A stretch of DNA of 64,000 nucleotides from an uncultured virus (IMG/VR IMGVR_UViG_2049941000_000254) (IMGVR_UViG_2049941000_000254), one strand, 5' to 3'. Counted from the first letter of the stretch, positions 8,478 through 56,016 are shown. The notes: generated by a model not told the origin, from the letters alone. Translations and numbers: made by a program.

Positions 8478-8605
8478 ACAAGGGGCTGACGCCCCTTTTT
8501 CGACTTAAAAATTTTTCATCGTGCCCACCGTGTCCCGAGTGTCACCGGAATCGGGTGACCTGGGGGAGTATCGTGGGGGCATTCAACCGAAAGGAGTTTT
8601 TAAAA

Positions 8606-8938
8606 ATGCGTAATCTTCCAATAGTCATCGGCATCGTCGAGGCATGTGTATTTGCCGACCAACTTCCCGTATGCGAGGAATTTGCCGGAGAGGAACATAT
8701 TCAGTGCGTATCGACTGACCGTGCTGCTGTAATCATTTCCCGATTCGATGACAGCGTGCAGTATGAATTTTACACGGCTGACGGGCACAAGGGTTACATC
8801 TACCTTGACGGAGGGGTCACAGTGAATACCGCAAAGCGTCACATGGACATTGCCGCCATACCCGCCGATGACAAGGACGAATATGTCCGAGAAGTGTTCA
8901 ATGCGGTCATGGATGACATCCATTGGCAGCATGACTAG
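8606..8938 (+). CDS. hypothetical protein
   Basis: Repeat, SD and ATG. Confidence 0.8.
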   Translation: MRNLPIVIGIVEACVFADQLPVCEEFAGEEHIQCVSTDRAAVIISRFDDSVQYEFYTADGHKGYIYLDGGVTVNTAKRHMDIAAIPADDKDEYVREVFNAVMDDIHWQHD

Positions 8939-9082
8939 GGCCTGCTGAATGAATGCCATCGGGGACCTATGGTCCCCGATGGTCCTGTTCGTTCCAAATA
9001 GCTGCCCACCGTGTATCAGTTGTCCCACGATCGGTGGGACCTGAGGATACATCGTGGGAATGTTCAACGAAAGGAGTTCACT

Positions 9083-9258
9083 ATGGCAACACAGATTATC
9101 CGTTACTCTAACCGAGCCGAGTTTGAGATTGAAAACTTGGTGGTTGATTTTACCACCGAAGATGTTGAAGTGGTTGACCATGTTCACATTGACGAAACCC
9201 ATATCTATTTCATTGGCGGTTTCCGTAAGGAATTGGCCGCCAAGGACCAGCTGTCCTA
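9083..9258 (+). CDS. hypothetical protein, truncated by gap
   Basis: Repeat, SD and ATG. Confidence 0.6.
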
Positions 9259-9718
9259 NNNNNNNNNNACGATATCTATCACTTTAATAGTTGTGAAGAA
9301 CTGATTAAGACGGGGCACACCACGGCAACATACTACCATCGGTCGGTTGATGTATATGCGGGTCTGCACGCAAAAAAGGTTGTTGATGACATGGGCGAGA
9401 AGAGCCTTGCAAAGTGCTATGCATACATTGCCGAACGCAGAAAGGAACACGCAAAGAACCTTTCCGACATGGAATTGCTCCGAGCCACCGCAAAAAATTC
9501 TTCTGTCACGGAAGATACCGCTGAAAATCTTGTTGAAGACATCAAGTGGTTCCTTGACAACAGAAAGGAAATCAAGGCGAAATGCAAGTAATTCAAGGGG
9601 CGAAAGCCCCTTTTCAATTTTTAATTTTTGAATCCGTGACCACCGTGTATCCGGTGTCCCACGGAAGATGGGACCTGAGGATACATCGTGGGAATGTTCA
9701 TTAAACAAGGAGTTAAAT

Positions 9719-10036
9719 ATGGTGAACTTTGAAAACGGCAACATCATTGACGACGATGGCTTTACAACCACATTCCCGTCTGACTTTTCCATTGCAGATC
9801 GCTTTGGGGTGAACGCCATCAAGGACACATTTAATCGTGCCTTTGGCGAATGGAAGGGGCACTACAAGTATCTGACTCACCTTGTCATCGCCTTGAACCA
9901 CAAGATTCATCAATGGTATGGCAAGAATGACGCCTATGCCAAACTCTACAACGCGTTGTGGGAAAAGGCGGACGCCTACGCATGCGAGAACTTGAAAGGC
10001 GATGAACTGAACTACTTCTACCGCACAACGGACTAG
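9719..10036 (+). CDS. conserved phage/MGE hypothetical protein (TTF.SDFSIADRFG...YFYRTTD)
   Basis: Repeat and SD; sequence pattern recognised as a widespread phage hypothetical family. Confidence 0.85.
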   Translation: MVNFENGNIIDDDGFTTTFPSDFSIADRFGVNAIKDTFNRAFGEWKGHYKYLTHLVIALNHKIHQWYGKNDAYAKLYNALWEKADAYACENLKGDELNYFYRTTD

Positions 10037-10162
10037 GAGAGGGGGCTTACCCCTGCCCCTCCCTTTTCCAACCGGTATCCGGTGCCCACCGTGTACCGTA
10101 TGTCCCACGGAAGATGGGACCTGAGGGTACATCGTGGGAATGTTCAAACAAAGGAGTTCATT

Positions 10163-10741
10163 ATGGCATTAGCAGAAATTTTCGGTCGCATTATCGGGGA
10201 CGAATACACGGGTATCTGTGTGGCGGACTACCTTGCCGAGAACCCCCACGCAAAGGTCAATGACCTCGTAAAGTTCCGCGGTGTCGGAATGGAGAACGCA
10301 AAGACCATCATGATGGTGATGGAAAGCAGTGCCGAATACCTAGCAGGAACCAATGCGGTATCCGTGTCCGACCCCAGCACCATCGTGAACCACCTCTCGT
10401 GGATGCGGTGGGAACAGCAGGAGAATTTGGTGGTGGTGACCCTTGATAATGTGAACCATATTATCGACAAGCACCTAGTGACTAAGGGTCTTGTAAACGA
10501 GGGGCCTTTCCACCCTAGGGAGATACTCCGTCACGCCATCTTGGACAATGCGGTGAGCATAATAGTGGCGCATAACCACCCTAGCGGAAATAGTGAACCT
10601 AGCGAGCAGGATATTGCGGTCACTAGGTTGGTAAATGCCGCTTGTAAAATTATGAAAATGCCTTGTTTAGACCATATTGTGATAAGCCGTAGTGGGTTTA
10701 CTTCTATCCACAGAACGCACCCCGAACTCTTTGAAATTTAA
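10163..10741 (+). CDS. radC: RadC-like JAB/MPN domain protein
   Basis: HhH-like GVGxxxA, QE, HPREI and AHNHPSGNSEPSEQD...LDHIVI motifs. Confidence 0.93.
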   Translation: MALAEIFGRIIGDEYTGICVADYLAENPHAKVNDLVKFRGVGMENAKTIMMVMESSAEYLAGTNAVSVSDPSTIVNHLSWMRWEQQENLVVVTLDNVNHIIDKHLVTKGLVNEGPFHPREILRHAILDNAVSIIVAHNHPSGNSEPSEQDIAVTRLVNAACKIMKMPCLDHIVISRSGFTSIHRTHPELFEI

Positions 10742-10895
10742 TTTTCAACTCCACGAATGAACAACCCTAGGGGCAAAAGCCCCTAGGACACTTTTTAAAA
10801 TTTATTTTCCCCGCATACCACCGTGTATCGCCGGTGCCCCGAGAGATGGCACCCGATGATACATCGTGGGTATGTTCAACAAAAGGAGTTCAGCT

Positions 10896-11387: not shown

Positions 11388-11611
11388 TCATGGGGGCTTA
11401 CGCCCCCTTTTCACCATCAAACAACATTAACAAGGAGTAGGAAATGCGTCGTTTAGTCGGATATCACGGATAATTTTTTGTTCCACTTTTCTAGTGCTCA
11501 CCCGAGCACTAGATTTTTATTTTTTAAATCGGGTCCACCGTGTATCCTAGGTGCCCTGCCCGATGGCACCTGATGATACATCGTGGGAGCGTTCAATAAA
11601 AGGAGTTCAAT

Positions 11612-12091: not shown

Positions 12092-12217
12092 GCATGGGGG
12101 AGGGTTCCCCTCCCATGTTCTCCCTACACTTTCCATAGTCTACCGTGTGTCCGGAGTGCCACGATCGGTGGCACCCGATGACACATCGTGGGAGCGTTCA
12201 ACCAAAAGGAGATGACT

Positions 12218-12670: not shown

Positions 12671-12795
12671 TGGGTAAGGGGCTATGCCCCATTTCCCTTT
12701 TTATTGTTCCGCCCGTTACCACCGTGTTCCCTATATGTCCCGCCCGCGGCCACCCGATGTCGCATCGTGGGAGCGTTCAACCAAAGGAGTGCTAT

Positions 12796-13041: not shown

Positions 13042-13139
13042 GAAGTGCCGACCTGCTGACCGACCGTGTATCGTGTGTGACCCGACAAGGGTCACCCGAT
13101 GATACATCGTGGGAGTGTTCATTCAACAAGGAGTTCAAT

Positions 13140-13472: not shown

Positions 13473-13592
13473 GGACTAGGGGGCGACCCCTTTCCTTTAC
13501 CAAGCACCTCAGACTACCGTGTATCACCGGTGACCCCGAACAAAGTCACCTGATGATACATTGTGGGAGCACAAGTTCAAAAGGAGTTCAGT

Positions 13593-14420: not shown

Positions 14421-14563
14421 GGTACAATATAGATTATAATTTTCTATTTGGCAAGTGACAAAATTTTCTAAATTTGATCCCAGTCCCCACCGTGTGTCCG
14501 GTGTTCCATGAACGGGGGAACCTGAGGACACATCGTGGAAGTGTTCAAACAAAGGAGTTCACA

Positions 14564-14815: not shown

Positions 14816-15011
14816 AACGCCCGTGAAGCCCGCCCCGCCCGTATTCAAGGGCTTGTTTTCAGTCTCGCCTAATTGGTTGGACGTGGTAATCAGTGACTTA
14901 ACATATATTTGGGGTTGCATGATTGGAAAGTAGCCACCGTGTCCCATGTGTCACCGGAATCGGGTGACTCGGGGGAACATCGTGGGAATGTTCAACCAAA
15001 GGAGATTGGAT

Positions 15012-15494: not shown

Positions 15495-15653
15495 TGACTC
15501 CGAATGAACAACCGCTAGGGGGAGCAATTCCCCTAACGGCGTTTTTGTAAATTTTATTTTTCATTTTTGCCCAGTGCCCACCGTGTATCTGGTGTTCCCC
15601 GAAAGGGGGAACCTGAGGATACATCGTGGTAATGTTCAAATAAAGGAGACTCT

Positions 15654-15821: not shown

Positions 15822-16042
15822 TATGCTCAACATCATCAAAACAAAATTTTTCAAATTTGCCGCGTTTGCCGCAAAGTCGCAGGGAATGGGACAAGTCCAA
15901 CCAATAGTTGTCCACCGCAACGGAAACACAGACCTGTTCGGCAGGTTTGGACGGCGCCGCTAGTCCAACCGTGTATCCGGTGTTCCCCGTTCGGGGGAAC
16001 CTGAGGATACATCGTGGAAGCGTTCAAACAAAGGAGTTCACC

Positions 16043-16453: not shown

Positions 16454-16631
16454 TATGGAACTGTTCAGAAACGATAATTGTTGGACTCCGAATGAACACA
16501 TGCTAGGGGTTCTTCCCTAGCATGTTTTTATAAATTTTCAATTTTGCCTTAAGTCCACCGTGTATCCCATGTGCCACGAACTCTGGCACCCGGTGATACA
16601 TCGTGGAAATGTTCAACGAAAGGAGTCAATC

Positions 16632-17175: not shown

Positions 17176-17257
17176 GTGCACTACCGTGTCCCAAGTGTCC
17201 CGATTATCGGGGGACGTGGTGGAACATCGTGGAAGCACATTCAGCAAGGAGGCCTAC

Positions 17258-17732: not shown

Positions 17733-17860
17733 CCTAGTGCCCGTTTGGGCACTTTTCTTTTTTTCAAATTTTGCTTTAGCCCACCGTGTTCCATGATGTG
17801 CCCCGAACGATGGCACCCGTTGGAACATCGTGGGAGCACAAGTTCAAAAGGAGTTGCTAT

Positions 17861-18421: not shown

Positions 18422-18564
18422 TCACCCTGCAAGGGGGTGCCAAAGGCGCCCTCTTGTAAATTTTATTTTTCATTTTTGTCCCAGTCCCACCGTGTTCCCG
18501 ATGTGCCCCGATCCGTGGCACCCGGTGGAACATCGTGGGAGCACATTCAACAAAGGAGTTCAAT

Positions 18565-18930: not shown

Positions 18931-19530
18931 GGAGGTGCTATGCTTGGNNNNNNNNNNATGATAGCAACTTTGAACCTCGGTCCGACCGACCCGAACAACC
19001 CTAAAGAAGATTTTACCAAATATTTCAGCACTGTCCGAAACACCGCCTTTAAGGACGATGTCAAGAAGTTCGTTGATTACCTGCATGCCCGTTACGATGG
19101 CGACAAGTGGTTCAAAGTGCTTGACCACTTCAAGGTCGAAGTCAACCGCATGGTTGAAAACCACAAAATCGGGTTGCTTAACNNNNNNNNNNATCGTCAG
19201 AGAAATAGAAGCAAAGCACAGAAATGCCAAGAGGGTCACCGTGACCTGCTACGGACAGAGGCAGGAATTTGAGAACACCCGCAAGGCGATAAATTTCTTC
19301 ACTCTTGCCGTTAACGGCTGCGACCCGCAGAGTTCCGAATGTGGCCGATACCAAAGAATTTTAAATCGGCTTTATGCGGGGGAGCGCATTGTTTCCGATG
19401 AATAAAAATAGTGCCCTCATGGGCACTTATTTTTTATTTTTTAATTTCGGGTCCCACCGTGTTCCATAGGTCCCATCACATGGGGTACCTGATGGAACAT
19501 CGTGGGAATGTTCAAACAAAGGAGATTGAC

Positions 19531-20229: not shown

Positions 20230-20340
20230 GGCAATCCCCCTTTTTATACTTCCTAGTGTCCACCGTGTTCCAGATGTGCCACGACCGGTGGCACCCGAGG
20301 GAACATCGTGGGATCACATTCATTCAACAAGGAGTTTGAC

Positions 20341-21086: not shown

Positions 21087-21176
21087 TCACCTCCGTTCCT
21101 ACCGTGTTCCCTAGGTCCCACAAAAGAGGGGACCTGAGGGAACATAGTGGAAACACATTCAACCAAGGATACAACA

Positions 21177-21692: not shown

Positions 21693-21839
21693 CTCCTGAT
21701 TGAACGGCCACGGGGGCTTATGCCCCCGTGGTGTTTTTTGTTTAATTTCCACCCTCAGGCCCACCGTGTCCCCATATGTGCCCCTAACGGTGGCACCCGG
21801 CGGGCCATCGTGGGAAACACCCTCAACAGAGGAAACACC

Positions 21840-22232: not shown

Positions 22233-22355
22233 GCGCCACGGAAATTTTTAATTTTTGATTTTCGCCGTTCGATATGTCCAACCGTGTTCCCGTTGTCCCA
22301 CGATGAATGGGACCCGGCGGAACATCGTGACATCGTTCAACCAAAGGAGACTACA

Positions 22356-23099: not shown

Positions 23100-23221
23100 A
23101 ACCTAGTGCCCGTATGGGCACTTATTTTTCCTTACGGAACTTCAGCCCACCGTGTTCCCGGGGTCCCATTATTCCGGGGACCCGGTGGAACATCGTGGCA
23201 TCGTTCAACCAAGGAGACAAC

Positions 23222-23593: not shown

Positions 23594-23759
23594 CACTCCC
23601 CGCTTCCCTCGGGGAGGCCCACGGGTGGCGTTCGGCACACTTTGCCACAACACAATGCCGTCACCCGTGGGCAATTCTTTCCACCGTGTTCCCGGTGTCC
23701 CACTATTCCGGGGACCCGGTGGAACATCGTGAAAGCACATTAACCAAAGGAGACAACCC

Positions 23760-24068: not shown

Positions 24069-24185
24069 CTCCCCGCTTCCCTCGGGGGTAGTCCGTGGGC
24101 ACTTCTTTCCACCGTGTTCCAGGTGTCCCCCGAACGGTGGGACCCGGCGGAACAACGTGGTGGCACAATCAACCAAGGAGACAAC

Positions 24186-24411: not shown

Positions 24412-24783
24412 ATGCGAAACATCCCAATCATCACCATCATGCTCCTCGCGTTCGCCCTCTTGACGGGGTGCGGGGAAGACACAAAGCAGGCAGCCAAGGA
24501 AGCCGCCAAGTCCACGGGCAAGCTTGTGGGCGCGGTAGTCACCGATGCCGCCAAGACCACCCTAGATGTAGCCACCGAGGTCGCCACGGGCGCGGGAGAG
24601 GTGGTAAAGGAAAAGGGTGGCGCAATGCTTGACACGGCAGCGGAAAAGGCCAAGGCGGTCGCGATAGACGCAAAGGACGCAATAGCCAAGAAAGCCAAGG
24701 AAACTGCCGACAGCGCCAAGAAATCGGTAAACGCGAGGGTTGGTGAGATAAAGAAGGCCAATAGAGAGCGAATGAAGAAATGA
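24412..24783 (+). CDS. Ala/Lys-rich putative lipoprotein
   Basis: LLAFALLTGC lipobox; helical AK repeats. Confidence 0.8.
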   Translation: MRNIPIITIMLLAFALLTGCGEDTKQAAKEAAKSTGKLVGAVVTDAAKTTLDVATEVATGAGEVVKEKGGAMLDTAAEKAKAVAIDAKDAIAKKAKETADSAKKSVNARVGEIKKANRERMKK

Positions 24784-24864
24784 TCCAACCGTGTTCCCGG
24801 TGTCCCTCGGAACGGGGGACCCGGTGGAACATCGTGATGGCACAATCAACCAACGGAGACAATA

Positions 24865-25176: not shown

Positions 25177-25510
25177 CAAGGAGACAATATGGCTATCAAT
25201 GAACCGAAAAGGCGGTTTGACTTCGTTGTCCACCGCAACGGATACAACGAGAATGTCGCCGTGTTCGACGAGTCCAAGTGGCTCGCCATGGCGCAGATGC
25301 GAACACTCTATCCGGGATCAAAGTTCTCCCTCGTAGTAGGAGGTAGAAAGTGAAGAAATTTTAACATAACACCCCACGGGGAGCCGGTTCTCCCTGTGGC
25401 ATTTTATTTTTTTAATTTTTGCTTTAGCCTACCGTGTACCGTAGTCTCCATATTCCGGGGTACCCGGTGGAACATCGTGGAAGCACAATCATTCAGCAAG
25501 GAGACACAAC

Positions 25511-26023: not shown

Positions 26024-26276
26024 TGCTCAAATGCCCCGCAATCAAGCAAGTGGAGCATGACACTATCGGACAGACGGACGCCCGTTTCAGACGGGTCGCC
26101 CGTTCCCTTGGTCTCGAAGTCTGCGGCTTCATGACCTTTGACAAATTTTTTAATCGCAAGTATTCCGCGTTGCAGGCTCGTCTCTGCCAGACAGTTCCCA
26201 ACCGTGTAGAGAACAGCCCCCGGTAGTGGGCACCTGGTGGAACATCGTGGAAGCATCAAACAAAGGAGACAACAAT

Positions 26277-26719: not shown

Positions 26720-26990
26720 GTCAGGCTGAATGACGTTAAATAAGCAGGTACCTCCGGTGCGGAGGAAGCTTATGAGGTCCGACTAGATACCCTCTACGGT
26801 TGCCACTTCGGTAAAGGCAAGGTGTCCGGGTTGAAGACCGAAGCTGCCACAATTTATGGTGGCGGTAGTTCACATCGTGACACAGGCCGGCATTTCCGAC
26901 AACGAACACTTCATGGAGCCGTTCGGGGTTGCTAGCAGTTAACGAAATCACCGTCTAAACAAGTGCCCACATGGGCACTTTTTATTTTTT
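26720..26990 (+). ncRNA. candidate structured ncRNA
   Basis: Promoter upstream, no SD-led ORF, several hairpins, terminator AGTGCCC-ACAT-GGGCACT-TTTT at 26962. Confidence 0.4.
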
Positions 26991-27084
26991 ATTTTTTGCC
27001 TTTTGCCCACCGTGTGCCCCATGTGCCCCGATCCATGGCACCCAGTGGCACATCGTGGAGGCGTATTCAACCAAGGAGACAACA

Positions 27085-27360: not shown

Positions 27361-27546
27361 GAGAAACTATGAAAAAGGAAGAAACATACAGCGCCCCTAT
27401 GCTTGTGGTAGGGGCAGATGGCAAACTCGTCGTAAAGCGCGTAAAGGCGCCGCGCAAGCACTAACGCCTACCGTGTTCCCAATGTCCCCCTTACGGTGGG
27501 ACCCGGTGGAACATCGTGAAAGCACATTCAACAAAAGGAGACAACC

Positions 27547-28125: not shown

Positions 28126-28252
28126 ACAAGTGCCCACATGGGCACTTTTTATTTTTATTTTTTGCTTTTTGCCCACCGTGTTCCCGGTGTGACCCGAACG
28201 CGGTCACCCGGTGGAACATCGTGGAGGCACATTCAACCAAGGAGACAACAAC

Positions 28253-28979: not shown

Positions 28980-29198
28980 ATGTGGAACGACTTCGGCAAT
29001 CCCGCCCCGATTATCGACAGGTCATACGGAGACCCCGGTTCGGGTGCGAAGAAGCGTAATTCAGACCACGCGGGGACAATGGGCAAGTGCAAGCACTGCG
29101 GAAAACCTACCTATCGAACGGTAGGCTCCGCCTATGTCTGCTCATACTGCACCCATCTTGAAAAGGAAAAGTGGCCCAATCTCCGTTCTGACAATTAG
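28980..29198 (+). CDS. small Zn-ribbon protein (CKHC...CSYC)
   Basis: Two CxxC motifs; GGAGG SD. Confidence 0.65.
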   Translation: MWNDFGNPAPIIDRSYGDPGSGAKKRNSDHAGTMGKCKHCGKPTYRTVGSAYVCSYCTHLEKEKWPNLRSDN

Positions 29199-29278
29199 CC
29201 CAACCGTGTTCCTTGGGTCCCCCTATCCCGGGGACCTGAGGGAACATCGTGGGGATACATTCAACCAAGGAGATAACA

Positions 29279-30342: not shown

Positions 30343-30444
30343 ACACCGTGTTTCCGCTGTAGCCAACCGTGTTCCCGGTGTCCCACAAAAGAGGGGACCC
30401 GGTGGAACATCGTGTATACAACAATTCAACCAAAGGAGTTCATA

Positions 30445-30837: not shown

Positions 30838-31107
30838 ACTGCTGGTATGAAGCAGAAAAACAAATTCTCCATATCATGGCTTGATATTGCGATAGGTGTA
30901 CTCACTGTGGCCAACATCGCACTCATTGCCGTGATATTCGTCCATTAAATTTTGTTATTGTCTCCGCCCGACCTGGTTCTCTAGGCCGGGTTTTTTATTT
31001 TTTATTTTTCTCCCGGACCCCTCCTGCCCACCGTGTTCCATATGGTCCACTTACAAGGGGACCTGGTGGAACATCGTGAGGATACATTCCAACCAAGGAG
31101 CCAAATC

Positions 31108-31347
31108 ATGTTCCACGAAAGAATCAAGATAATCGAACACAAGCCGGACGGAACCGATAAGGTCATCGAGGAGCGCGTATGGGCATCGCCGTATGGCAAT
31201 ACGAGGAACCCCGAAATCTTCATCCGTTCTTCCTACAAGGAACTTGTCGGGGAAAACATCAAGGTCGAAATTTCCGGCTCGAAATGGCAGCTGAATAGCC
31301 CGGACGGACACTATTCCTGGGTGGCTACCTGGGAATCGGCCATCTGA
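31108..31347 (+). CDS. hypothetical protein
   Basis: Repeat, SD and ATG. Confidence 0.75.
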   Translation: MFHERIKIIEHKPDGTDKVIEERVWASPYGNTRNPEIFIRSSYKELVGENIKVEISGSKWQLNSPDGHYSWVATWESAI

Positions 31348-33171: not shown

Positions 33172-33254
33172 CCCACCATGTTCCACAGGTCCCCCGGTCG
33201 AGGGGACCCGGTGGAACATCGTAGGGTCAACAATCAACCAAAGGAGACAACACC

Positions 33255-33661: not shown

Positions 33662-34012
33662 ATGGCTGTGACACTATGGATTCTTCGCCACAATGGCGAA
33701 CCAATTTTCAAGTTTGGCCCCTCGCGCTATACTAATGACAGCGAGGACAAACTTTTAATCGACTATGTATGCAAGGAAATCCACAAGCACCCCGGTTGCA
33801 AGGTTTCCCTTAACCATACCTGGTTTGAGGACAGGCCTAGCATTTCCGGCAAGGTCGCCATGGAATACAATGGCCCCCAGGACAACCGCAAACTGCGCTA
33901 CATGATGAAGCGCCAATGCCGATGGTTTTGGACGCATGTCTACAACATCTTTGTCGATAGTCCCGATGGTCGCCGTATCATCGACTTCGAACTGGAATAC
34001 ATCGACCTCTAG
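33662..34012 (+). CDS. hypothetical protein
   Basis: GGGGGTG SD. Confidence 0.7.
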   Translation: MAVTLWILRHNGEPIFKFGPSRYTNDSEDKLLIDYVCKEIHKHPGCKVSLNHTWFEDRPSISGKVAMEYNGPQDNRKLRYMMKRQCRWFWTHVYNIFVDSPDGRRIIDFELEYIDL

Positions 34013-34093
34013 TCCTACCGTGTTCCCCATGTCCCATTTAAATGGGGACCCGGTGGAACATCGTAGGGACATCAATCAAAAGGAGACAACACC

Positions 34094-34654: not shown

Positions 34655-34829
34655 ATTTCACTCCGGTGCCCGATCGGCGCGGTGGGGGGCTTAACACCCA
34701 TGACGGTGCCGGAGTGCTGTGTTTTATTTTTTATTTTTTGACTTTTCCCCACCGTGTTCCCCATGTCCCCCGACAAAGGGGACCCGATGGAACATCGTGC
34801 GGATACAATCAACCAAAGGAGACAACACC

Positions 34830-35771: not shown

Positions 35772-35857
35772 TGTATTCCCATCGTGTTCCCCATGTCCCC
35801 CGAACGAGGGGACCCGGTGGAACATCGTGCGGATACATTCAACCAAGGAGCACAACA

Positions 35858-36394: not shown

Positions 36395-36480
36395 CCATTC
36401 CCCAACCGTGTTCCCCATGTCCCCCGGAAAAGGGGACCCGGTGGAACATCGTAGGGGCATCAAGCAACCAAGGAGACAAT

Positions 36481-36951: not shown

Positions 36952-37241
36952 AGCAAAAATGGGCCCGTGCAGTTCGGAGGGCAATGACTCAATAACCCGT
37001 CGCCGGATTGCACGGGCCCGTAAAAGCCAAATTCCGGCGACATTATAAAATTAGTATTTTTCTATTAACTGATTTGTAAAATTTAATTTTTTGTTGTCTC
37101 CACGCCCGACCTGGTTCCCCAGGCCGGGCCTTTTTGTCCCACGGATCCCTCTAGCCCACCGTGTATCACATGTCCCCACCATCAAGGGGACCTGAGGATA
37201 CATCGTGGTCGTGAAATACAGGACCAATAAAGGAAAATAAC

Positions 37242-37652: not shown

Positions 37653-37741
37653 CCCCGGTCCCCTACCGTGTCCTTACTGTCCCACATTACCGGGGACCTG
37701 AGGACACATCGTAGGGACATAATTCAACCAAGGAGACAACC

Positions 37742-38179: not shown

Positions 38180-38268
38180 TTTCCCCCTACCGTGTCCTTA
38201 CGGTCCCACATTCCCGGGGACCTGGTGACACATCGTAGGGACAGAATTTTTTAAAAAAGGAGACAACC

Positions 38269-39338: not shown

Positions 39339-39567
39339 TCAATAACCCTGTTGTCTCCTGACCCCCGGTGACCCATGTCGCCGGGGGTCTCTTTGTGTCC
39401 CCGGTCCCCCCTTGCCCACCGTGTCAATACCCCTGCCCCGAGCGAAGGCACCCGGTTCCCCCGGACCCCCTGTTCCCACCGTGTATCCCCCTTGCCCCGA
39501 TCGATGGCACCCGATGATACACCGTGAACCCCGAAACCAGTCGAACCTATCTGCCAAAGGAGGCACC

Positions 39568-40443: not shown

Positions 40444-40911
40444 TTTGGTCCTGTGGAGCCTACCGTGTCCATGGTATGTTCTGGAAAGGTGGGACCTGGT
40501 GGAGCATCGTACGGACATAGCAATTTGGCAAGGAGACAACTATGGCAAAGCATAACTTACCGATTATCGAGGGTAACGATACCANNNNNNNNNNCAAAAA
40601 TATACCCTTGATAAATATAAGTACCGCGATATTACCAAAGATTATCCATGGACCGGATATGATGGAACCGTACACCATTCATATTACACATATACGGAAC
40701 ATTACGATGAAATAACATCTGTTGCTGCGGTTCGAGGACAGTTCGGGCGNNNNNNNNNNGTGCGCCCCGTGACCCTATGATACATATTTTGTGTATCGTG
40801 GGGTACAATGGTGCGTAGTGGTGGAGAGTGGGAACCTTTGAGCAGGTGTGCAGTTGAGCAGTATATGAATTGATGCAATCATATCAATTCTATCAATTAT
40901 ATGAATTGGCG

Positions 40912-40927: not shown

Positions 40928-41025
40928 TTTGTGCCTATGGTGCCTACCGTGTACCCGGTCGGTCCCGATCTCGGGGACCCGGTGGTATATCGTATGGGCA
41001 TAACGAAACAACACGGAGACAACAG

Positions 41026-41704: not shown

Positions 41705-41980
41705 ATGGTACGAAATCGTGAAATGTTTATCTGGTGGTTAATACTTACACTTATTCAATTTGGTTTACCTTTTGTCGATACCCGCATATACACCCCTTTG
41801 TGGATATTGACAATAGCCACATGTCCTCTATTCCTCGCAATACTAGGCCCACTTTCGCATCACCTAATAACCGATAATGAAAATGACCCTGGTGCACAAG
41901 TAGTATATGGTGTAGCAGTATTATGCGCGTTATGGTACTGTTATCCTATATTCCTCACAGTCATATATTGCATTAAATAG
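41705..41980 (+). CDS. small membrane protein (about 3 TM)
   Basis: GGAGG SD; hydrophobic segments. Confidence 0.7.
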   Translation: MVRNREMFIWWLILTLIQFGLPFVDTRIYTPLWILTIATCPLFLAILGPLSHHLITDNENDPGAQVVYGVAVLCALWYCYPIFLTVIYCIK

Positions 41981-42069
41981 CCAACCGTGTACCTGGGGTG
42001 CCCCGGTCGTGGGGACCCGGTGGTACATCGTAGGCGCATAACGAAAACAAACCGAAAGGAGACAACCTT

Positions 42070-42297: not shown

Positions 42298-42512
42298 CTG
42301 ACGGCGAGACCGAGAAGGCCTGCCGTACCAAGGGCGACCGATGGGACGACGGTTGGGACGGCCCGCAGTACATCACCTTCAAGCGGAAGCGGTACCGGGT
42401 GGTTCGCGAGGGCAGGTCGTTCGCGGAGAAGTTCAGTTTGAGGCCCATGTAGCCAACCGTGTGACCGGGTGTCCCCGATCGNNNNNNNNNNTTCCCTCCC
42501 AACAAGGAATCC

Positions 42513-43043: not shown

Positions 43044-43188
43044 CGGAATCACGGGTACGAGGACGATATTGAAATCACCCTCAAATACAGCCCTAGACTG
43101 GCCTACCGTGTCCAATGGGTCCCATGTGTGAGGGGACCTGGTGGGACACCGTATGGGCATGAACAATTAACCGAAAGGAGACACTAAT

Positions 43189-43643: not shown

Positions 43644-43819
43644 NNNNNNNNNNNNNNNNNNNNNNNNNNNNNNNNNNNNNNNNNTGTGACGATGGGTCGA
43701 ACTACCTTCTTAAGCTCGCCGCATGGGACGGGTCCAAGTAGCCAACCGTGTGCCCGGTGTCCCATGAAGATGGGGACCTGGTGGCACATCGTATGGGCAT
43801 AACAATCAAGGAGACAACC

Positions 43820-45006: not shown

Positions 45007-45471
45007 ATGATTACGATGAAGGAATATCGCGAGTGCAAGGAAAANNNNNNNNNNNNNNNNNNNNNNNNNNNNNNNNNNNNNNATTTCGAGCGTTCGGTAA
45101 TCGTGGCCGCAATAGTGACCGGGAACCTTGTGAACACTTCAATACCAGATGTGACTGCGGTGGTGCCGGATTCCAATGGCGGAATTTGGCTCCATGAGTA
45201 CGATATCGCGCACCACATTCCCAGAAAGGAACTCCGTTCCATGATGAAGGGAGGTGGCCGTTGGGTCGTTGAGTTCAAGGACATCCACTGCAACCGGGAG
45301 TACCGCATCTTCGATGACAAGAAGTCCGCAAATCGCTACTATGACGAATGCATGGCCCGTACTGCGGAATGCGCCGATGAAGGCGATGACTATGACATCG
45401 AATGGGTAGACATCAACTGGTACGACTGGGCAGATTTCCCGGAAGAAGCCCTGGACTACGCCGACCTGTAG
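45007..45471 (+). CDS. hypothetical protein (gapped)
   Basis: GGAGG SD. Confidence 0.6.
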   Translation: MITMKEYRECKEXXXXXXXXXXXXXXFERSVIVAAIVTGNLVNTSIPDVTAVVPDSNGGIWLHEYDIAHHIPRKELRSMMKGGGRWVVEFKDIHCNREYRIFDDKKSANRYYDECMARTAECADEGDDYDIEWVDINWYDWADFPEEALDYADL

Positions 45472-45548
45472 CCAACCGTGTGCCATGTGTCCCCCGGATA
45501 AGGGGACCCGGTGGCACATCGTAAGGTCATGACAATCAAGGAGATAAC

Positions 45549-46346: not shown

Positions 46347-46433
46347 TCACCCATCCTACCGTGTTCCTGGTGTTCCCCGTTCGAAGGCACCCGGTGGCAC
46401 ATCGTATGGTCATCACTTCAAAAGGAGACAATT

Positions 46434-46928
46434 ATGCAGTCCAATTTCGCAAAACTGGCCCAGTTGGCCACAAACACCGTCCGCATGGACGAAGCATCCA
46501 AGATTATCGGCAAGCAGGACGAAAGCCGTACCTTGCTTTCCACCCTCGCGCCCCTTTTCGCGACCGTCATTGACGCGGAACTGGCTCATGCCATGGAGCA
46601 GAACCTTTCCGGCCTTTCCAAGGACGATGACATCGGCGTGGAGGACAGCAAGTTCGAGGTGGGCAAGTCTGCCGATGAAGGCACCCGTTGGCTTGACTAC
46701 ATCTTCATGCTCACGGGCAATTTCCCCGGCGTTATCAAGTTGCGCCTCACCATCTGTACCGCCCCGGACAAAATCGACTTCTACATGCAGACCCTGGCCC
46801 AGGACGATGAAGGCAAGGTGATTGACGATAACAGTATCGGGGAAGCCGAAATCAAGGGTATCCCGTTTGCCCTCCCGATGGCGGTGTCGATGATGCTCGA
46901 TGCCTGCAAGAAGAAGGGCGAGGCATAG
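46434..46928 (+). CDS. hypothetical protein
   Basis: Repeat, SD and ATG. Confidence 0.8.
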   Translation: MQSNFAKLAQLATNTVRMDEASKIIGKQDESRTLLSTLAPLFATVIDAELAHAMEQNLSGLSKDDDIGVEDSKFEVGKSADEGTRWLDYIFMLTGNFPGVIKLRLTICTAPDKIDFYMQTLAQDDEGKVIDDNSIGEAEIKGIPFALPMAVSMMLDACKKKGEA

Positions 46929-47013
46929 CTAACCGTGTTCCCGGCGTGTCCCGATCGAGGGCACCCGGCGTCACATCGTATGGGCAACAATCAACAAGCT
47001 AGGGAGGCTTACC

Positions 47014-47334
47014 ATGGAATTTAAGGACGAAATCATCAAGAGACTTGCCGACGAAGGCATCTTGTTCACGAAGAACAACACGGGAAGCATACTTACCTAC
47101 CGTGCCAACTATGACCATGCGGAAGTCACCGTGTTCGCGGGCCGTTCCTACCAGGGTTTCTTGCCGCATTTCAAGATTATGTGTGATGGCATGGAAACGG
47201 TAAACAAGGCATTTCCCGAGGATGCGGACCTGGAGAAGGTACTGCGCGATGTTGNNNNNNNNNNCACGGGCAACATGGACCAGGCCATCGAGAACTTCCA
47301 GGAAACCATAGGTGGCTACAAGGACCTCAAGTAG
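47014..47334 (+). CDS. hypothetical protein, paralog of 44663-44998
   Basis: Repeat, GGAGG and ATG. Confidence 0.8.
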   Translation: MEFKDEIIKRLADEGILFTKNNTGSILTYRANYDHAEVTVFAGRSYQGFLPHFKIMCDGMETVNKAFPEDADLEKVLRDVXXXXTGNMDQAIENFQETIGGYKDLK

Positions 47335-47411
47335 CCAACCGTGTGTCCGGTGTCCCACGTAACCGGGGACCCGGTGACACATCGTATGGACAACAAACAA
47401 GGAGACACTCA

Positions 47412-47723
47412 ATGAGTACCGATAAAACCTCTCTCAACACCCCGTTAGCCCAGGTAGACTACGGCGTGATTGTTGACTACCCGCATTCCGTGAAGTTTGT
47501 CGCAATCCTTTCCGACGTGGCAGGGGTCGCGTTGGACGAAACTGCGGAAATACTCTTCCCGAAGCCGTCCCATCCGTGCTTCTCGGTAACGGGGAACCAT
47601 ATCGCGACGAGCGACGAGGTGTTCGCGAAACTTGTATCCTGGCTATCGGACAAGAAGCTCATGTACAGCACAAGCGACATGGACATGTACGCGAATAAGA
47701 TACACTACCTGGCCAACGCATAG
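47412..47723 (+). CDS. hypothetical protein
   Basis: Repeat, SD and ATG. Confidence 0.8.
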   Translation: MSTDKTSLNTPLAQVDYGVIVDYPHSVKFVAILSDVAGVALDETAEILFPKPSHPCFSVTGNHIATSDEVFAKLVSWLSDKKLMYSTSDMDMYANKIHYLANA

Positions 47724-47806
47724 GCCAACCGTGTTGGCCGGATGCCGGATGCCACGGCACCCGGCAACACATCGTATGGTCATAGCAAAATTAAAGGCGA
47801 GAACCC

Positions 47807-48208
47807 ATGAAGGAAACGAAACTTGAAACTATCCTCCACATGACCAAGGTGCTGAACAATTTCAAGGAACAGCACCCCGGCATCATAGACATCGGCGTGA
47901 TGGGGGTCGATACATTCTTCGATACCCTGGGCAAGAACCTTCCTTCCTGGGCGAAGAAGAACGCGGAACCCCACAAGGGCGGCTACGCAGGGTACATCCG
48001 TATCAAGTGTTCCGAGACGCTGAGAAAGAAACTGGACTACCCGTCCATCTGGGAGTACCAGTTCAGCGACAAGGCCGAGGATGCAATAATTGGCGCAGTC
48101 CAGGTCATGCACGCCGTATGTACCGCCCGTGGCAACAAGGGCGAGGCAGAGTTCCTGGGTAGCATTTCAAGGGACCTCCGTTCACTTGATTTCAACCCTA
48201 CCGTGTAG
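47807..48208 (+). CDS. hypothetical protein; stop codon inside next repeat
   Basis: Ends ...CCT ACC GTG TAG. Confidence 0.75.
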   Translation: MKETKLETILHMTKVLNNFKEQHPGIIDIGVMGVDTFFDTLGKNLPSWAKKNAEPHKGGYAGYIRIKCSETLRKKLDYPSIWEYQFSDKAEDAIIGAVQVMHAVCTARGNKGEAEFLGSISRDLRSLDFNPTV

Positions 48209-48277
48209 ACGGCACCACGCGAACAAGGGGACCCAGTGGAACATCGTATGGGTATAACAAACAACAAGGAGACAAGC

Positions 48278-49014: not shown

Positions 49015-49361
49015 TCCACCTTTTAACCTACCGTGCGCCAGGTGTTCCCCGATCGGGGGGACCCGGTGCTTCATCGTATGGGCATAACTCAAACAAAGGA
49101 GACAACCAATGACCTTTACCAAACTTCTCGCAATTCTCAACAAGAAATGCCCCATGTATGAGGTCGGGCATGAGACCGGGGCCAAGGTGCTTTTCGGGAA
49201 TGGAGGCGGCACCATAGATTGGTGCGNNNNNNNNNNCACTTTGGTTTCACCTTCGGGAGCGACGATGCCGAATGGCTCGATGAAACAGGTCACACACCCG
49301 TATGGACCAAAATCCAGGACGAACGTTTCCTTGAACAACTCTTAAAGAAGGAGGCTTAACA

Positions 49362-49755: not shown

Positions 49756-50190
49756 ATGGCAAAGAAGAAACTCGCCGAACGCAAGTTCTCTAGTGGGGAA
49801 CTGAAACAGATTAACGCAAAGAAGTACCTTTCCTGGAAATGTACTCGCAAGAAGGTCATCGAGGGGAACAAGACGGATTTCGCCCTGTTCACGTTGAGCG
49901 ATACTTTCGTGCATGAGCATCACTCCATAGGAATCAGCCCGGTAATAGTTTCGCGAACCAATACCGAACTTCGGTTGGGTTATAAGGTGGTCGTTTCGTT
50001 CACCGAGAAGGATGTCGCAAAGCGTTTCTCCGCAATCGCCGCGCCGTCCNNNNNNNNNNCCGAAGGTAATGTCGATATCGCCATCTACGAGGCGACTCGT
50101 TTGGCCAATGCACAAAACAACCTGCTGTGGACCATGCCCGATGGGACTGTCCGTACAGGTGCCAAGCGTCGCAGGAAGACTACCGTGTAG
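49756..50190 (+). CDS. hypothetical protein; stop codon inside next repeat
   Basis: GGAGG SD (MAKKKL...); ends ACC GTG TAG; contains gap. Confidence 0.65.
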   Translation: MAKKKLAERKFSSGELKQINAKKYLSWKCTRKKVIEGNKTDFALFTLSDTFVHEHHSIGISPVIVSRTNTELRLGYKVVVSFTEKDVAKRFSAIAAPSXXXXEGNVDIAIYEATRLANAQNNLLWTMPDGTVRTGAKRRRKTTV

Positions 50191-50457
50191 CGGGCATGCC
50201 CCGATCTCGGGCACCTGATGGNNNNNNNNNNAATGTGGGTCGCCCGTGCCTACTTCGGCGATGGTAACACCGTCAAGGCGGGGGTGAACCTATCCGACAG
50301 GACAATCGAGTGTCTTGAATGGGCCGAGAATGAACTTGGGAAGGAACAGTACACTATGCCCTATGCCACCGAAATCGCCATCACAATCAAGTACCTCAAA
50401 GCCCGAAAGGANNNNNNNNNNACATCGTATTGGCAACGAACAACAAAGGAGACAATC

Positions 50458-51246: not shown

Positions 51247-51384
51247 CGAAATTCTCCATGCTAGCATTCCGAAATGTTAGTATGCAGTAAAATGTTAGAT
51301 AGGATCCTACCGTGTACAGGGGATACCCCGGTGACTGGGGCCTGGTGGCACATCGTATGGACAACAAGCAACAAGGAGACAAAC

Positions 51385-52431: not shown

Positions 52432-52623
52432 ATGCCGACTAACATGAACGAAATCAAGGACTACACCGAAAATGCAAACAAGTTCATCGAGGAACTGATG
52501 AAGGAAGGATATGCCAAGTCGGATATCTTCACCAAGTTCGTCACGGGAGGTAAGCAGGTCGTGTACCCGGTCATAGGCGACGACGGCAGACCGCACCTGG
52601 AAAAGAAAACGTTCAAGTCGTAG
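52432..52623 (+). CDS. small hypothetical protein
   Basis: GGAGG SD (MPTNMN...). Confidence 0.65.
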   Translation: MPTNMNEIKDYTENANKFIEELMKEGYAKSDIFTKFVTGGKQVVYPVIGDDGRPHLEKKTFKS

Positions 52624-52702
52624 CCAACCGTGTCCCAGTTGTTCCCCGATCGTGGGCACCCGGTGACACATCGTAACGGCATAACAACAAAGGAGACACA
52701 CC

Positions 52703-53137: not shown

Positions 53138-53573
53138 GGGGAGTCATGACAGATGTCATCATCAAGAACCTTTTCCGCGAGTCCACTCTCGCGTATTTCA
53201 ACCGCAGAGTTCCCGGCGTCATGGTACCGGGCCATGGACCGGAAGCCCTCGCCAAGTGCAAGGATTATCTTAAGGAACATGAGGCCGACTGGNNNNNNNN
53301 NNNNNNNNNNNNNNNNNNNNNNNNNNNNNNNNNNNNNNNNNNNNNNNNNNNNNNNNNNNNNNNNNNNNNNNNNNNNNNNNNNNNNNNNNNNNNNNNNNNN
53401 NNNNNNNNNNNNNNNNNNNNNNNNNNNNNNNNNNNNNNNNNNNNNNNNNNNNNNNNNNNNNNNNNNNNNAGGAGGCCGAAACGAAATAAGAACCAACCGT
53501 GTTCATGGAACCACCGGATCGAAGGCACCCGGTGGTTTATCGTATGTGCATCCACTTAACAAAGGAGACAAAC

Positions 53574-54122: not shown

Positions 54123-54205
54123 ATCCAACCGTGTTCCCCCGGTGCCCCGATCGGTGGCACCCGATGGAACATCGTATGGGCATCACTCAAACAAAGGAGA
54201 CAACC

Positions 54206-54592
54206 ATGTCAATCAAGAACAACAAAGTTTACATCGCCGCGGGCATGTACTGCGGTACTGACGGTTCCGACCTTTTGGTCCCGGAAGTCTACGAAAGCCG
54301 CGAGGATGCTCGCAAGGCCATCATCGAGGCAATTCTCGGCGCGGCAGCAGGCGCGGAACTCATTGACGAGGAAAGGAACCTTATCAAGGACGAGTTCGGA
54401 AACGGTGACCGCGTGGTGGTCACGGTTCAAGGGATGGTCGATGGTAAGAATGTCATTGACGATTCCCTCACCTCGCTCACCGATGAAGAAATTGACAGGG
54501 TTGTCCCTGCCGATGTAAGGTGTATCACCATCAAAGACAATTCCTATGATGAATACTGGACATGGGAAATCCATGAAAAGGTCATCGGGTAA
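54206..54592 (+). CDS. acidic hypothetical protein
   Basis: Repeat, SD and ATG. Confidence 0.8.
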   Translation: MSIKNNKVYIAAGMYCGTDGSDLLVPEVYESREDARKAIIEAILGAAAGAELIDEERNLIKDEFGNGDRVVVTVQGMVDGKNVIDDSLTSLTDEEIDRVVPADVRCITIKDNSYDEYWTWEIHEKVIG

Positions 54593-54605
54593 CGGAGGCA
54601 AACAA

Positions 54606-54992
54606 ATGTACTACACCGGAATGATTCCGAAATGCTTCATCGTCGAGGAAACCGTAACCAAGAACAACCTGGTTGCAGGAAAGTTTCTCACCGTGTTTCG
54701 ATTCGACCAGGCGCACTGGATGCGCAAGTTCATTGAGGACAGGATGGCGAAAGCCTTTGCACAGTTCGGCGATAACTACAACCTGGAAACGGGGCGTTTT
54801 GAGAACGGAGCGAAGGTCACCATCATCTACTCTCCGAAAGATACTTCATGCATTGCCGATACCATCGAATCGTATTCCCCATGTTCCCTCCCGGAGACCG
54901 TAGCACATGTCAAGGTGGAAGACAGCCTGGGCACCGAATGGGACTGGCAAATCTACTGGCAGGACGAGGACGTTCCTGAAGCAAACGGATAA
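54606..54992 (+). CDS. hypothetical protein
   Basis: GGAGG SD. Confidence 0.75.
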   Translation: MYYTGMIPKCFIVEETVTKNNLVAGKFLTVFRFDQAHWMRKFIEDRMAKAFAQFGDNYNLETGRFENGAKVTIIYSPKDTSCIADTIESYSPCSLPETVAHVKVEDSLGTEWDWQIYWQDEDVPEANG

Positions 54993-55090
54993 TGCGGCCT
55001 TACCCATAGGCCAACCGTGTTCCAGGTGTGCCCAGAACGAGGGCACCCGGTGGAACATCGTATGGGCAACAAACAACAAAGGAGACACCT

Positions 55091-55408
55091 ATGAAGAACT
55101 ACAAGATGCTCAAGCCGGGAAAGACCGTGTGCATTTCCCTTGAAGAACTTTTCAACACCATCCACAACGGCGATGTACACACTACCGACTGCGGCCATGA
55201 GATTGTCCGCACCGTGGAAGATGATGGTTCCGCATATTTTGACCTTGACAACAGTGCTACCGATTACGCCTGCTGCGATGGTGAAGAATGCGAAGTGAAG
55301 TCAGTGGACGGTTCCGTGGTCACCTTCATCAACAAGAACCAGGAAGAACCGCAGGAGTTCAAGCTCACCATCCGCGAATGTGAAACCGCCATTTTTGGCT
55401 TGAAGTAA
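55091..55408 (+). CDS. hypothetical protein
   Basis: Repeat, SD and ATG. Confidence 0.8.
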   Translation: MKNYKMLKPGKTVCISLEELFNTIHNGDVHTTDCGHEIVRTVEDDGSAYFDLDNSATDYACCDGEECEVKSVDGSVVTFINKNQEEPQEFKLTIRECETAIFGLK

Positions 55409-55418
55409 GGAGGAAACC

Positions 55419-55936
55419 ATGGGAACACGCTCTACAATCGGATTCCGTTCCGGTAATGAAGTCCGCTATATCTATGTGGATTGTGACGGTTTCAATCACG
55501 GCGCAACGCTTGAAAAGATTGGCCATTACTCATGCCTAAAACTCTGGGAACAAATCGGGGAAGCCGAGAAAAACGGGCAGAAGGTATGGTTGGACCACCT
55601 CTACACCGATGATGTGCTTCCTATTGACTGGGCTCCCGTTCAGCCGAATGCGCGTACCCCGATTGTCGCGACCGAAAAGAACTGGNNNNNNNNNNCAAGG
55701 CATATCTTGAAACCCAGGCTTTCCAGTTGAGCGGCATCATCAAGGTGGAAACGAATTGGAAAGTCAGCCCGTTCGACCTGATGCACCTCATTGATATGGA
55801 AGGTACCGTGTGGCTCTATGACCTGGACAACGGCAAGGTGTTCTTCATGGGTGACCCGGAAGCCACCGAAGACCTGGTGTACAACCACAAACCCGCAAGT
55901 TCCACCGGAATCGTAAAGAAGCAGATCGAGTTTTAG
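55419..55936 (+). CDS. phage hypothetical protein (MGTRSTIG...IYVDCDG), frame broken by gap
   Basis: GGAGG SD; MxTRSxIG N-terminus typical of a phage family. Confidence 0.65.
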
Positions 55937-56016
55937 CCAACCGTGTGCCATGGGTCCCCCGATCGAGGAGACCCGATGGCACATCGTATGGACATCAAGC
56001 AACAAGGAGACATATC

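Follow-up and report, generated by a model that had tools for sequence, protein, structure and literature searches.

A repeated intergenic hairpin in a gene block of large phages that looks like a new gene-expression signal

The attC sites of integrons are bounded by inverse core and core sites, RYYYAAC ... GTTRRRY, and the RNase III site R1.1 of phage T7 contains a 4/5 internal loop. As far as the passages on them go, the RNase III substrates in T7 and SP82 are internal-loop hairpins that are cut once, on the downstream side (PMC1935012). In T4-type phages the elements named PeSLs (promoter-early stem-loops), about 50 per genome in the passages that describe them, are found ahead of ORFans in hyperplastic regions, and each closes with a Shine-Dalgarno site and a start codon (PMC2839356). 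Phage N4 is described as having three promoters for its virion RNA polymerase, with a 5-7 bp stem and a 3-nt loop between -17 and +1, and these are read by the giant virion polymerase with gyrase and SSB (PMC4496689). In Cluster K mycobacteriophages, the start-associated sequences carry 17-bp inverted repeats around a variable spacer of 4-13 bp, and their function is given as unknown in the passages on them (PMC3203893). Here we describe a repeated intergenic hairpin in a 64,000-nt stretch of an uncultured virus (IMG/VR IMGVR_UViG_2049941000_000254), called the window below, and compare it with these systems. The element looks like a new gene-expression signal, and we rate it as a repeated intergenic expression cassette of large phages that is unusually rich in natural variants.

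Repeat search, pattern scans and alignment gave 69 full copies of the element in the window, and 3 more that are interrupted by masked runs of N. Number, strand and position can be read directly: every copy lies on the + strand, and the copies range from 7526 to 62585. The first 7.5 kb of the window, where the genes are on the opposite strand, has no copy at all. A first-pass annotation of the window had placed the family at 8524..56000; copies do fill that range, but the family extends beyond it on both sides. The element is an imperfect hairpin of about 55 nt within a repeat family about 61 nt long. Each copy begins with CCNACCGTGT, followed in order by a 6-nt arm, 4 nt, an arm of 5-7 nt, the loop, the matching arm, CCYGR-K, the other matching arm and the closing ACATCGT, after which come G-rich bases. 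The hairpin's 17-19 pairs are interrupted by two internal loops and capped by a terminal loop of about 9 nt. ACCGTGT and ATCGT are separated by 48 nt in 64 of the 69 copies and by 49 nt in the other 5.

How widespread is the element? A covariance model was built from the alignment of the window copies and used with a cut-off of E <= 0.01. It gave 213 matches in 439,434 bases, which comprise the window and four related virus records; 3 of the 213 are on the opposite strand, and each of these overlaps a same-strand copy. The four related records contribute 145 further copies. The same one-sidedness was seen in a position-weight scan, with same-strand and opposite-strand hits of 68/1 in the window and 60/0, 47/1, 31/0 and 8/0 in the other four records. 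In a relative of 253 kb, rated 99% complete, the copies are confined to 22.0-82.1 kb. Metagenome contigs hold at least 145 loci among the matches listed, and 40 of those carry 72 true copies; some of these contigs, again among the matches listed, measure 159-473 kb. Counting the 212 scored copies from the five records and the 72 from metagenome contigs (among the matches listed), there are more than 280 natural variants. Rfam, run over the whole window at its gathering thresholds, matched only a tRNA. Over 33100-36600, which holds five copies, a search with E up to 5 gave no element match above noise, the sole overlap with the element being a miRNA model that scored 20.7 bits where the threshold is 82. 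Keyword searching of the literature, which is blind to sequence and to differently worded descriptions, found no account of the element.

Do the arms of the hairpin covary? The question was addressed with 500 shuffles, slid-partner controls, mutual information with average-product correction (which damps family structure), a second set of copies that is independent of the first, and a comparison of the elements that precede orthologous genes. In the 69 window copies 81.7% of the cells are paired against 75.8 +/- 0.6 in shuffled data, and 87 cells are changed on both sides against 43.1 +/- 4.8; neither value was reached in any of the 500 shuffles. The covariation score in these copies also exceeds all 500 shuffles, and slid partners are just 34-50% paired. 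The 145 copies of the four other records, which played no part in deriving the structure, gave 77.4% paired cells against 71.0 +/- 0.5, 217 both-side changes against 117.5 +/- 7.8 and a covariation score of 0.216 against 0.130, each with 0/500 shuffles reaching the observed value. Both copy sets also stand far above the slid-partner controls. Two other statistics, the count of pairs with both-sided change and the count of pair types, did not beat the shuffles in either copy set.

Mutual information over the 1830 column pairs of the 212 copies points to the same structure. Pair 13-46 ranks first, 22-36 second, 14-45 fifth and 5-54 twelfth; the best long-range pairs coincide exactly with predicted base pairs, and the remaining top pairs are adjacent columns. 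The states of these pairs are diverse: GC 45, TA 43, AT 39 and CG 5 at 13-46; CG 118 and TA 37 at 14-45; CG 109, GC 38 and TA 7 at 22-36. Perfectly complementary variants number 8 in the outer stem and 7 in the inner stem and occur in 17 combinations, so a few inherited haplotypes cannot explain the pattern. Among elements that precede similar proteins in different records, 95 compensatory pair changes were counted across 90 element pairs, together with 124 double changes that include at least one unpaired state and many single changes. For example, GCC/GGC in one record corresponds to TCC/GGA in another before proteins that are 94% identical. Copy-to-copy conversion could shift both arms together, but each complementary variant must still have arisen at least once. 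The pairing is real for two stems, the outer and the inner.

The copies and stem variants on which the first-pass annotation had rested its case were all recovered by pattern scans. In the outer stem these are TGTATC/GATACA (9008 and 13063), TGTGTC/GACACA (12142 and 14489), TGTTCC/GGAACA (17783 and 23683), TGTGCC/GGCACA (27009, 45475 and 55940) and TGTACC/GGTACA (10088 and 41984). In the inner stem they are GTCAC/GTGAC (8527 and 14936), GTGAC/GTCAC (13063 and 28175) and GTTCC/GGAAC (14489 and 15968), and in the basal stem CCTAC/GTAGG (34017 and 37665). Its statement that three stems co-vary stands for the outer and inner stems, but the basal stem does so only weakly, resting on pair 5-54, which is CG in 79, TA in 35, TG in 12 and unpaired in 86 of the 212 copies. 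There are further limits on the pairing. The outer 6-bp stem is perfect in 102/212 copies and the inner 5-bp stem in 111/212, the basal stem beyond A6-T53 and C7-G52 is paired in about half of the copies, and one subfamily keeps its outer stem only with a one-base bulge. RNAalifold alone gave a weak consensus of -1.73 kcal/mol.

Positions that do not pair are conserved as well. Column frequencies over the 212 copies bear out the earlier observation that CG opposite TC and the CYG of the asymmetric loop are strongly kept: C8 is present in 210 copies and C51 in 211, with C opposite C in 209, and G9 is kept in 196 copies and T50 in 150, the two facing each other as G and T in 140. The G9-T50 apposition is a wobble pair on the + strand only. 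The 3' strand of the internal loop, CCYGR, is conserved (C39 in 199/212, Y40 in 211/212, G41 in 206/212). The 5' strand is unconserved, at 46-55% for positions 16-19, and position 18, which faces the invariant G41, is a purine in 173/212 copies. Another register was also noticed. The invariant 5' box CCACCG (positions 4-9) exactly complements the conserved loop strand CGGTGG (40-45), and pairing of the two would leave the 3' end box out of the fold. Of the six pairs of this alternative, five or more are Watson-Crick in 65/212 copies and all six in 8/212; it is the minimum-energy fold in 3/212. Covariation favours the original fold, and the alternative was rejected. K-turn, twister and hairpin-ribozyme readings were likewise set aside, given no Rfam support, a variable terminal loop and unsuitable loop geometry. 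The terminal loop (positions 24-35) contains GATC in 57/212 copies and CGATCG in 25/212, far above a rough chance estimate of about 3-4%; the complete relative encodes DNA methyltransferases.

What is the hairpin for? Its place in front of genes is the main guide. The Shine-Dalgarno site begins 14-17 nt past ..CGT in 124/210 copies and the start codon comes next, which makes up a cassette in which an A/C-rich linker (about 15 nt) joins the hairpin (about 55 nt) to the Shine-Dalgarno site and the start codon. The block in which the cassette occurs consists of co-oriented small genes over 55-60 kb. On a rough gene list, the element is present before about two thirds of these genes, and the rest follow the preceding gene gaplessly. 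The stop codon of the upstream frame is under 10 nt from ACCGTGT, or the frame runs into the element's 5' flank, in 77/191 copies, and a stricter script found a terminator-like hairpin within 90 nt upstream in only 41/213; most copies therefore lie inside multi-gene units, and the element goes with translation signals and not with the borders of transcription units. In view of the covariation, of the poor fit of a sigma-70 duplex promoter and of the way in which the element tracks the ribosome-binding site everywhere, with or without a terminator and often touching the upstream stop, we favour, with a probability of roughly 0.42, a transcribed leader or intercistronic RNA hairpin that is read by a protein and serves as a processing, stability or translation signal.

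In the scenario that we favour, the hairpin would be transcribed as the 5' leader or intercistronic spacer of early mRNAs and would fold in the RNA. The protein reader would contact the invariant lower helix, in which ACCGUGU is paired with ACAUCGU around a C-C mismatch and a G-U pair, and also CCYGR, the strand that is conserved on the 3' side of the asymmetric internal loop. The likeliest job would be a processing and stability signal of the RNase III-site type, as in the early mRNAs of T7 and SP82. Long transcripts might be cut or marked, giving every gene a leader that is defined and unstructured, and each upstream piece of transcript would gain a protective 3' hairpin. A close variant is a class-wide switch for translation or decay of the block genes. 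In a relative, a tRNA-Arg gene begins 22 nt after one of the copies, a placement that fits processing or transcription and not a purely translational operator. A more specific proposal, to which we give a rather low chance, is that the hairpin is an mRNA punctuation mark, that is, an RNA site specific in both sequence and shape that is bound or cut by a dedicated phage or host protein, or is possibly self-cleaving. If this were true, the long early transcripts throughout a clade of ruminal jumbo phages would be split into single-gene messages and a whole gene class could be switched at once.

Several observations weigh against a transcribed RNA signal. The canonical register is the minimum-energy RNA fold in only 93/212 copies; 31/212 fold with the inner stem alone and 85/212 fold differently, most commonly in a GC-rich relative, in which the pairing of the loop region has moved to another register. 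Among 937 cells, isolated appositions comprise 24 G-T, 22 A-C and 32 other against 859 Watson-Crick pairs, and such an absence of wobble preference is what a constraint at the level of DNA, or on both strands, predicts. The near-fixed length, 48 nt in 64/69 copies despite a variable terminal loop, is typical of duplex-DNA spacing. In the early part of the block, 14 elements have a strong terminator-like hairpin 25-50 nt upstream, and no recognisable promoter lies between terminator and element, so transcription may start at or near the element itself. A phage RNase III was found in 0/4 related records, and a RegA-like regulator was not found in a search whose control was also silent.

Which molecule folds, and which strand? 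The first-pass annotation had proposed to infer this from G-T versus A-C appositions. The count above, limited to positions with Watson-Crick neighbours on both sides, shows no asymmetry and indicates neither a strand nor RNA or DNA. A per-copy fold count (111 internal G-U against 17 A-C) is biased by the energy model and was set aside. For comparison, 12 terminator hairpins of the same genomes, each with one internal mismatch, have 7 G-U, 2 A-C and 3 others; this leans in the direction expected of RNA, in a sample too small to prove a difference. The hairpin is stable as RNA, with a mean folding energy over the 212 copies of -26.4 kcal/mol (-12.4 as DNA) and with RNA-fold z-scores that range from -2.1 to -4.4 in five copies. 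For one copy the reverse complement gave a comparable fold, as expected of a palindrome. Covariation calls for either a folded single strand or mutational copying of one arm from the other. Since G-T is no commoner than A-C, selection on the fold is not the only possible source of the pairing, and templated mutation from arm to arm in a quasi-palindrome might also keep the arms complementary. Thus the claim of selection on secondary structure holds in so far as complementarity is kept in the outer and inner stems, but fold selection is one possible source of it among others.

If the arms are kept by templated mutation, or by conversion between copies, the element could be a duplex-DNA operator for a symmetric regulator, dimeric or tetrameric. 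The sequence does contain nested near-symmetric half-sites at fixed spacing (AC..TGT..C and its mirror, GTSCC and its mirror), the ratio 24:22:32 of G-T, A-C and other appositions is roughly that of unselected new mutations (by reasoning and not by computation), and a SpoVG-like protein is encoded early in the block in both the window and the complete relative. However, binding by a dimer leaves unexplained why complementarity persists in 17 arm combinations at the uncontacted pairs 13/46, 14/45 and 22/36. Templated correction should also make the 5' loop strand (16-19) the complement of the 3' strand, and it is observed to be otherwise. What is more, directional reading is favoured by the conserved asymmetry (CG versus TC, and the 4x5 loop) and by the fact that all copies point the same way. 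We consider such an operator improbable.

A stronger competitor, possible though still unlikely in our estimate, is a non-canonical early promoter cassette, the counterpart of the PeSLs, read as DNA and with transcription starting near the G-rich bases after ..ATCGT. Its reader would be a modified host polymerase, or the promoter would take hairpin form as in phage N4. The phage is of T4 type by its terminase and its baseplate and tail PHROGs, and the placement of the element matches that of PeSLs; the fixed length, the lack of a G-T preference, the confinement to a single block of the genome, which a temporal class would show, and the copy upstream of a tRNA gene all fit. N4 promoters too are described as mixing conserved stem bases with variable ones that keep the hairpin (PMC4496689). 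Terminators also stand upstream of 41/213 copies without another visible promoter, and these copies are nearly all of the class with G after ..CGT (39/125 copies, against 2/83 with A). Set against this, two thirds of the copies are without an upstream terminator and directly adjoin the upstream stop. In the window between 9300 and 29200, terminator-like hairpins with T runs are enriched (41 against 22.2 +/- 4.5 expected), and sigma-70-like sites are not (16 against 16.4 +/- 4.0), with none on the + strand at an element.

The twelve terminator-like hairpins with T runs that were located 5' of copies are all on the + strand. The first, a GC hairpin 25-50 nt 5' of its copy, is at 9595..9612, and the others are at 10766..10787, 11490..11513, 16498..16525, 17736..17753, 18428..18458, 19410..19427, 21707..21732, 23105..23122, 25374..25399, 26961..26980 and 28128..28147. 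The hairpin of the element itself runs into G-rich, not T-rich, sequence. A T-rich block of the type TTTTGTAAATTTTATTTTTCATTTTTG or TTTTTATTTTTTATTTTTTG lies between terminator hairpin and element and ends 8-12 nt before ACCGTGT; such blocks were seen at 15521-15574, 18437-18483, 16526-16551, 25400-25425, 26981-27003, 28148-28169 and 34700-34745, and also in the relatives G002 (the 253-kb record) and G004. The block is longer than a terminator tail requires and might act as a promoter of an unrecognised kind, with transcripts that begin at the hairpin's foot. Sigma-70 boxes were sought in the T-rich blocks by eye and by computed scan, with nothing consistent. Bacteroidota-type and sporulation-sigma-type boxes were tried too and rejected; their spacings are wrong, and the start would land within the Shine-Dalgarno site.

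Does the cassette itself resemble a promoter? By column frequencies over the 212 copies, there are no conserved blocks 16-18 bp apart with a start upstream of the Shine-Dalgarno site; no sigma-70-like boxes were found, and the blocks that are conserved are not spaced as -35 and -10. A duplex reading also gives no reason for the stem covariation, and a DNA hairpin averaging -12.4 kcal/mol, with two internal loops and a 9-nt terminal loop, is poorly suited to extrusion. In the 99%-complete relative, searches for a phage RNA polymerase came up empty: the two-barrel polymerase motif DxDGD is in none of its frames of at least 150 aa, its large proteins have no PHROG or PDB sequence match, and PF00940, the T7-type polymerase family, gave no match in a search whose control also matched nowhere; a very divergent enzyme may have escaped these searches. 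A sigma-70 duplex promoter is disfavoured by the covariation, the block spacing and the lack of a phage polymerase in sight. Full-length sigma-70-family factors are encoded in 3/4 related records, with genes at 7448-8218 of G002 and 160263-160457 of G003, the latter directly after the last element of the block. These genes come downstream of the block and one of them has an element in front, so the factors more likely serve a later class. A sigma gene after the last element fits a cascade in which the block is expressed before a sigma-dependent class. An AsiA homologue was not found, in a search whose control matched nowhere.

The hairpin had also been likened to the extrahelical bases of attC sites or HUH hairpins, and one may ask whether it is a module for recombination or mobility, either a folded single-stranded DNA site (attC-like, or like IS200/IS605 or REP) or a homology patch that shuffles cassettes. 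Small unrelated genes are indeed separated by one co-oriented imperfect palindrome, gene content varies between relatives while the elements persist, and PeSLs are reported, in the passages on them, to mediate shuffling (PMC2839356, PMC4122927). In the 253-kb record (G002, L084-L093), there are at least 8 scattered TnpB/OrfB_IS605-like genes; one of these is beside a Y1 transposase, and another is within the block and preceded by an element. The analogy nevertheless fails. PF00589 tyrosine recombinases were found in 0/4 related records, with the control positive in 14/14 genomes, and none is among the Pfam matches of 91 window proteins. The PF01797 Y1/HUH transposase is present in only 1/4 records; its gene occupies 186545-186922 of the complete relative, over 100 kb away from the 22-82 kb block, and the 91 window proteins include none. 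The attC core sites are absent from the ends of the element, the invariant ends being ACCGTGT and ACATCGT, the length is fixed, and conservation reaches the ribosome-binding site. Homologous shuffling could moreover be a by-product of any other reading. We regard a role of this kind as very unlikely.

The copies fall into classes by the bases that follow ..CGT, and the classes keep the same order along the block in all five records. The positions in the window, all on the + strand, come from pattern scans, alignment and covariance-model matches, and are given here by the 5' outer arm and by the base after CGT. With G after CGT, the arm TGTTCC occurs at 12716..12776, 17778..17839 (one nt longer), 18484..18544, 19451..19511, 20257..20317, 21096..21156, 22276..22336, 23144..23204, 23678..23738, 24106..24166, 24783..24843, 27465..27525, 28170..28230, 29198..29258, 30361..30421, 31025..31085, 31346..31406, 34746..34806 and 35776..35836. 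The arm TGTATC, also with G, occurs at 9003..9063, 9637..9697, 10815..10875 (upstream of the SpoVG-like gene), 11532..11592, 13058..13118, 13511..13572 (one nt longer), 15575..15635, 15963..16023, 16552..16612, 37153..37214 (one nt longer) and 39473..39533. The other copies with G have the arms TGTCCC (7526..7586, 8522..8582, 14931..14991, 17178..17238 and, one nt longer, 21758..21819), TGCCCC (7928..7988), TGTACC (10083..10143 and 25426..25486), TGTGTC (12137..12197 and 14484..14544), TGTGCC (27004..27064) and the degenerate TGTAGA (26196..26256).

With A after CGT, the arm TGTTCC is found at 33170..33230, 34012..34072 (with basal CCTAC/GTAGG), 36400..36460, 46353..46413, 46927..46987, 54123..54183, 55009..55069, 60419..60479 and 62525..62585. 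The same class includes TGTTCT (32049..32109), TGTCCT (37660..37720, with basal CCTAC/GTAGG, and 38184..38244), TGTCCA (40457..40518, one nt longer, and 43100..43160), TGTACC (40941..41001 and 41979..42039), TGTGCC (43740..43800, 45470..45530 and 55935..55995), TGTGTC (47333..47393), TGTTGG (47723..47783), the degenerate TGTAGA (48195..48255), TGCGCC (49025..49085), TGTACA (51304..51364), TGTCCC (52622..52682) and TGTTCA (53491..53551). One copy, with arm TGTCCC at 58125..58185, has C. Of the interrupted copies, a 5' half-copy at 42449..42481 is cut by the masked run 42482-42491, the copy at 50175..50221 is broken close to its 3' end by the run 50222-50231, and the copy at 56931..57000 has the run 56959-56968 in its terminal loop.

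Some copies have unusual neighbours. Two tRNA-like 3' ends of the type GGTTCGAA...CCA, at 46320-46352 and 52164-52185, lie directly upstream of elements, and at the matching places of a relative there are tRNA-SeC(TCA)-like and tRNA-Glu genes with elements immediately after them; the window itself has a tRNA-Arg(CCG) gene at 59174-59249. Two elements share on their upstream sides (40386-40456 and 40870-40940), in a stretch of low G+C (0.436), some 75 nt of AT-rich sequence in which a TATCAATT motif is doubled. Just 5' of two other elements, at 58088-58124 and 62490-62524, there are direct repeats, CGTGATTTAGTAAAT twice and CATTCGGYGTGATTT twice, and these look like iterons or operators. A longer direct repeat of 225 nt, 88% identical, is at 18958-19182 and 19531-19755, 573 nt apart, in or beside two neighbouring small genes.

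Which phages carry the element? The phage is a distant jumbo phage of T4 type, and the cassette would be specific to one lineage, a clade of such phages sampled from the ruminant gut. The sequencing-run index gives bovine gut metagenomes. The terminase of the complete relative (253 kb) is 26-31% identical to T4-type gp17, and the same genome encodes baseplate-wedge and tail proteins and PhoH by PHROG matches, as well as thymidylate synthase and an FtsK-like ATPase. A megablast of 20 kb against cultured phages gave no match. The closest relatives of a host-like sugar-metabolism gene are in Clostridia and Oscillospiraceae genomes, at 43-47% identity; this is weak evidence that suggests a Firmicute-type host, and it agrees with the strong Shine-Dalgarno sites. 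Known families are rare in the block. Pfam families were assigned to 3/86 block proteins, namely a RadC-like JAB domain, SpoVG and DUF3293, and PHROG matches were found for 2/24 window proteins. The SpoVG-like protein is encoded at 10896-11387 on the + strand of the window (Pfam E 2.6e-16), early in the block and with an element in front, and it is conserved in the complete relative at G002 74455-74715. The SpoVG family comprises site-specific binders of DNA or RNA, and the protein is a candidate reader of the element.

Why would such a signal matter? About a quarter of each 250-kb phage genome is a block of small genes that is almost without known families, and nearly all genes of the block would be governed by one structured signal that is absent from the libraries. 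Once found, the reader could give a handle on the timing and dosing of host-takeover genes in uncultured jumbo phages of gut Firmicutes. The signal would also flag early genes in metagenomic contigs, and the cassette could act as a compact insulating expression part. In addition, the more than 280 natural variants offer material for work on how proteins recognise a helix whose mismatches are fixed.

How does the element stand beside the systems described above? It shares with integron attC sites the imperfect palindromes between small co-oriented genes and the conserved unpaired bases, but attC is highly variable in length, with a central part that varies and with the cassette border inside the site, whereas the element is fixed in length and its conserved unit reaches the next ribosome-binding site. 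The start-associated sequences of Cluster K, of which there are reportedly 11-19 sites per genome, are similar in their single orientation at translation starts and their conservation before orthologous genes, and their extended form has imperfect inverted repeats; they belong, however, to temperate mycobacterial siphoviruses, their sequence is unrelated, and the passages on them report no stem covariation. With the N4 promoters the element has in common the conserved stem bases alongside variable bases that only pair, the single orientation and the place before early genes. It differs from them in its 17-19 pairs, its two internal loops and its roughly 70 copies, and no such polymerase was detected.

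The likeness to PeSLs extends to number and place, with some 50-70 intergenic cassettes per genome in a variable region of small ORFans, within the T4 superfamily, and the PeSL features of a G/C-rich stem-loop and of a Shine-Dalgarno site and start codon at the end are present in the element. According to the passages on them, PeSLs are built round a consensus sigma-70 promoter, and none was found in the element; their stem-loop acts as a terminator or attenuator and varies in position, whereas the hairpin of the element has no T run. The fixed 48-nt frame, the invariant end boxes and the co-varying stems are further differences. The phage RNase III signals occur in a handful of copies against tens for the element, which has invariant boxes that RNase III does not need, and some element copies are preceded by terminator-like hairpins. 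The likeness to these signals lies in two helices split by an asymmetric loop, in the intergenic position 5' of the ribosome-binding site, and in repetition along an early transcript.

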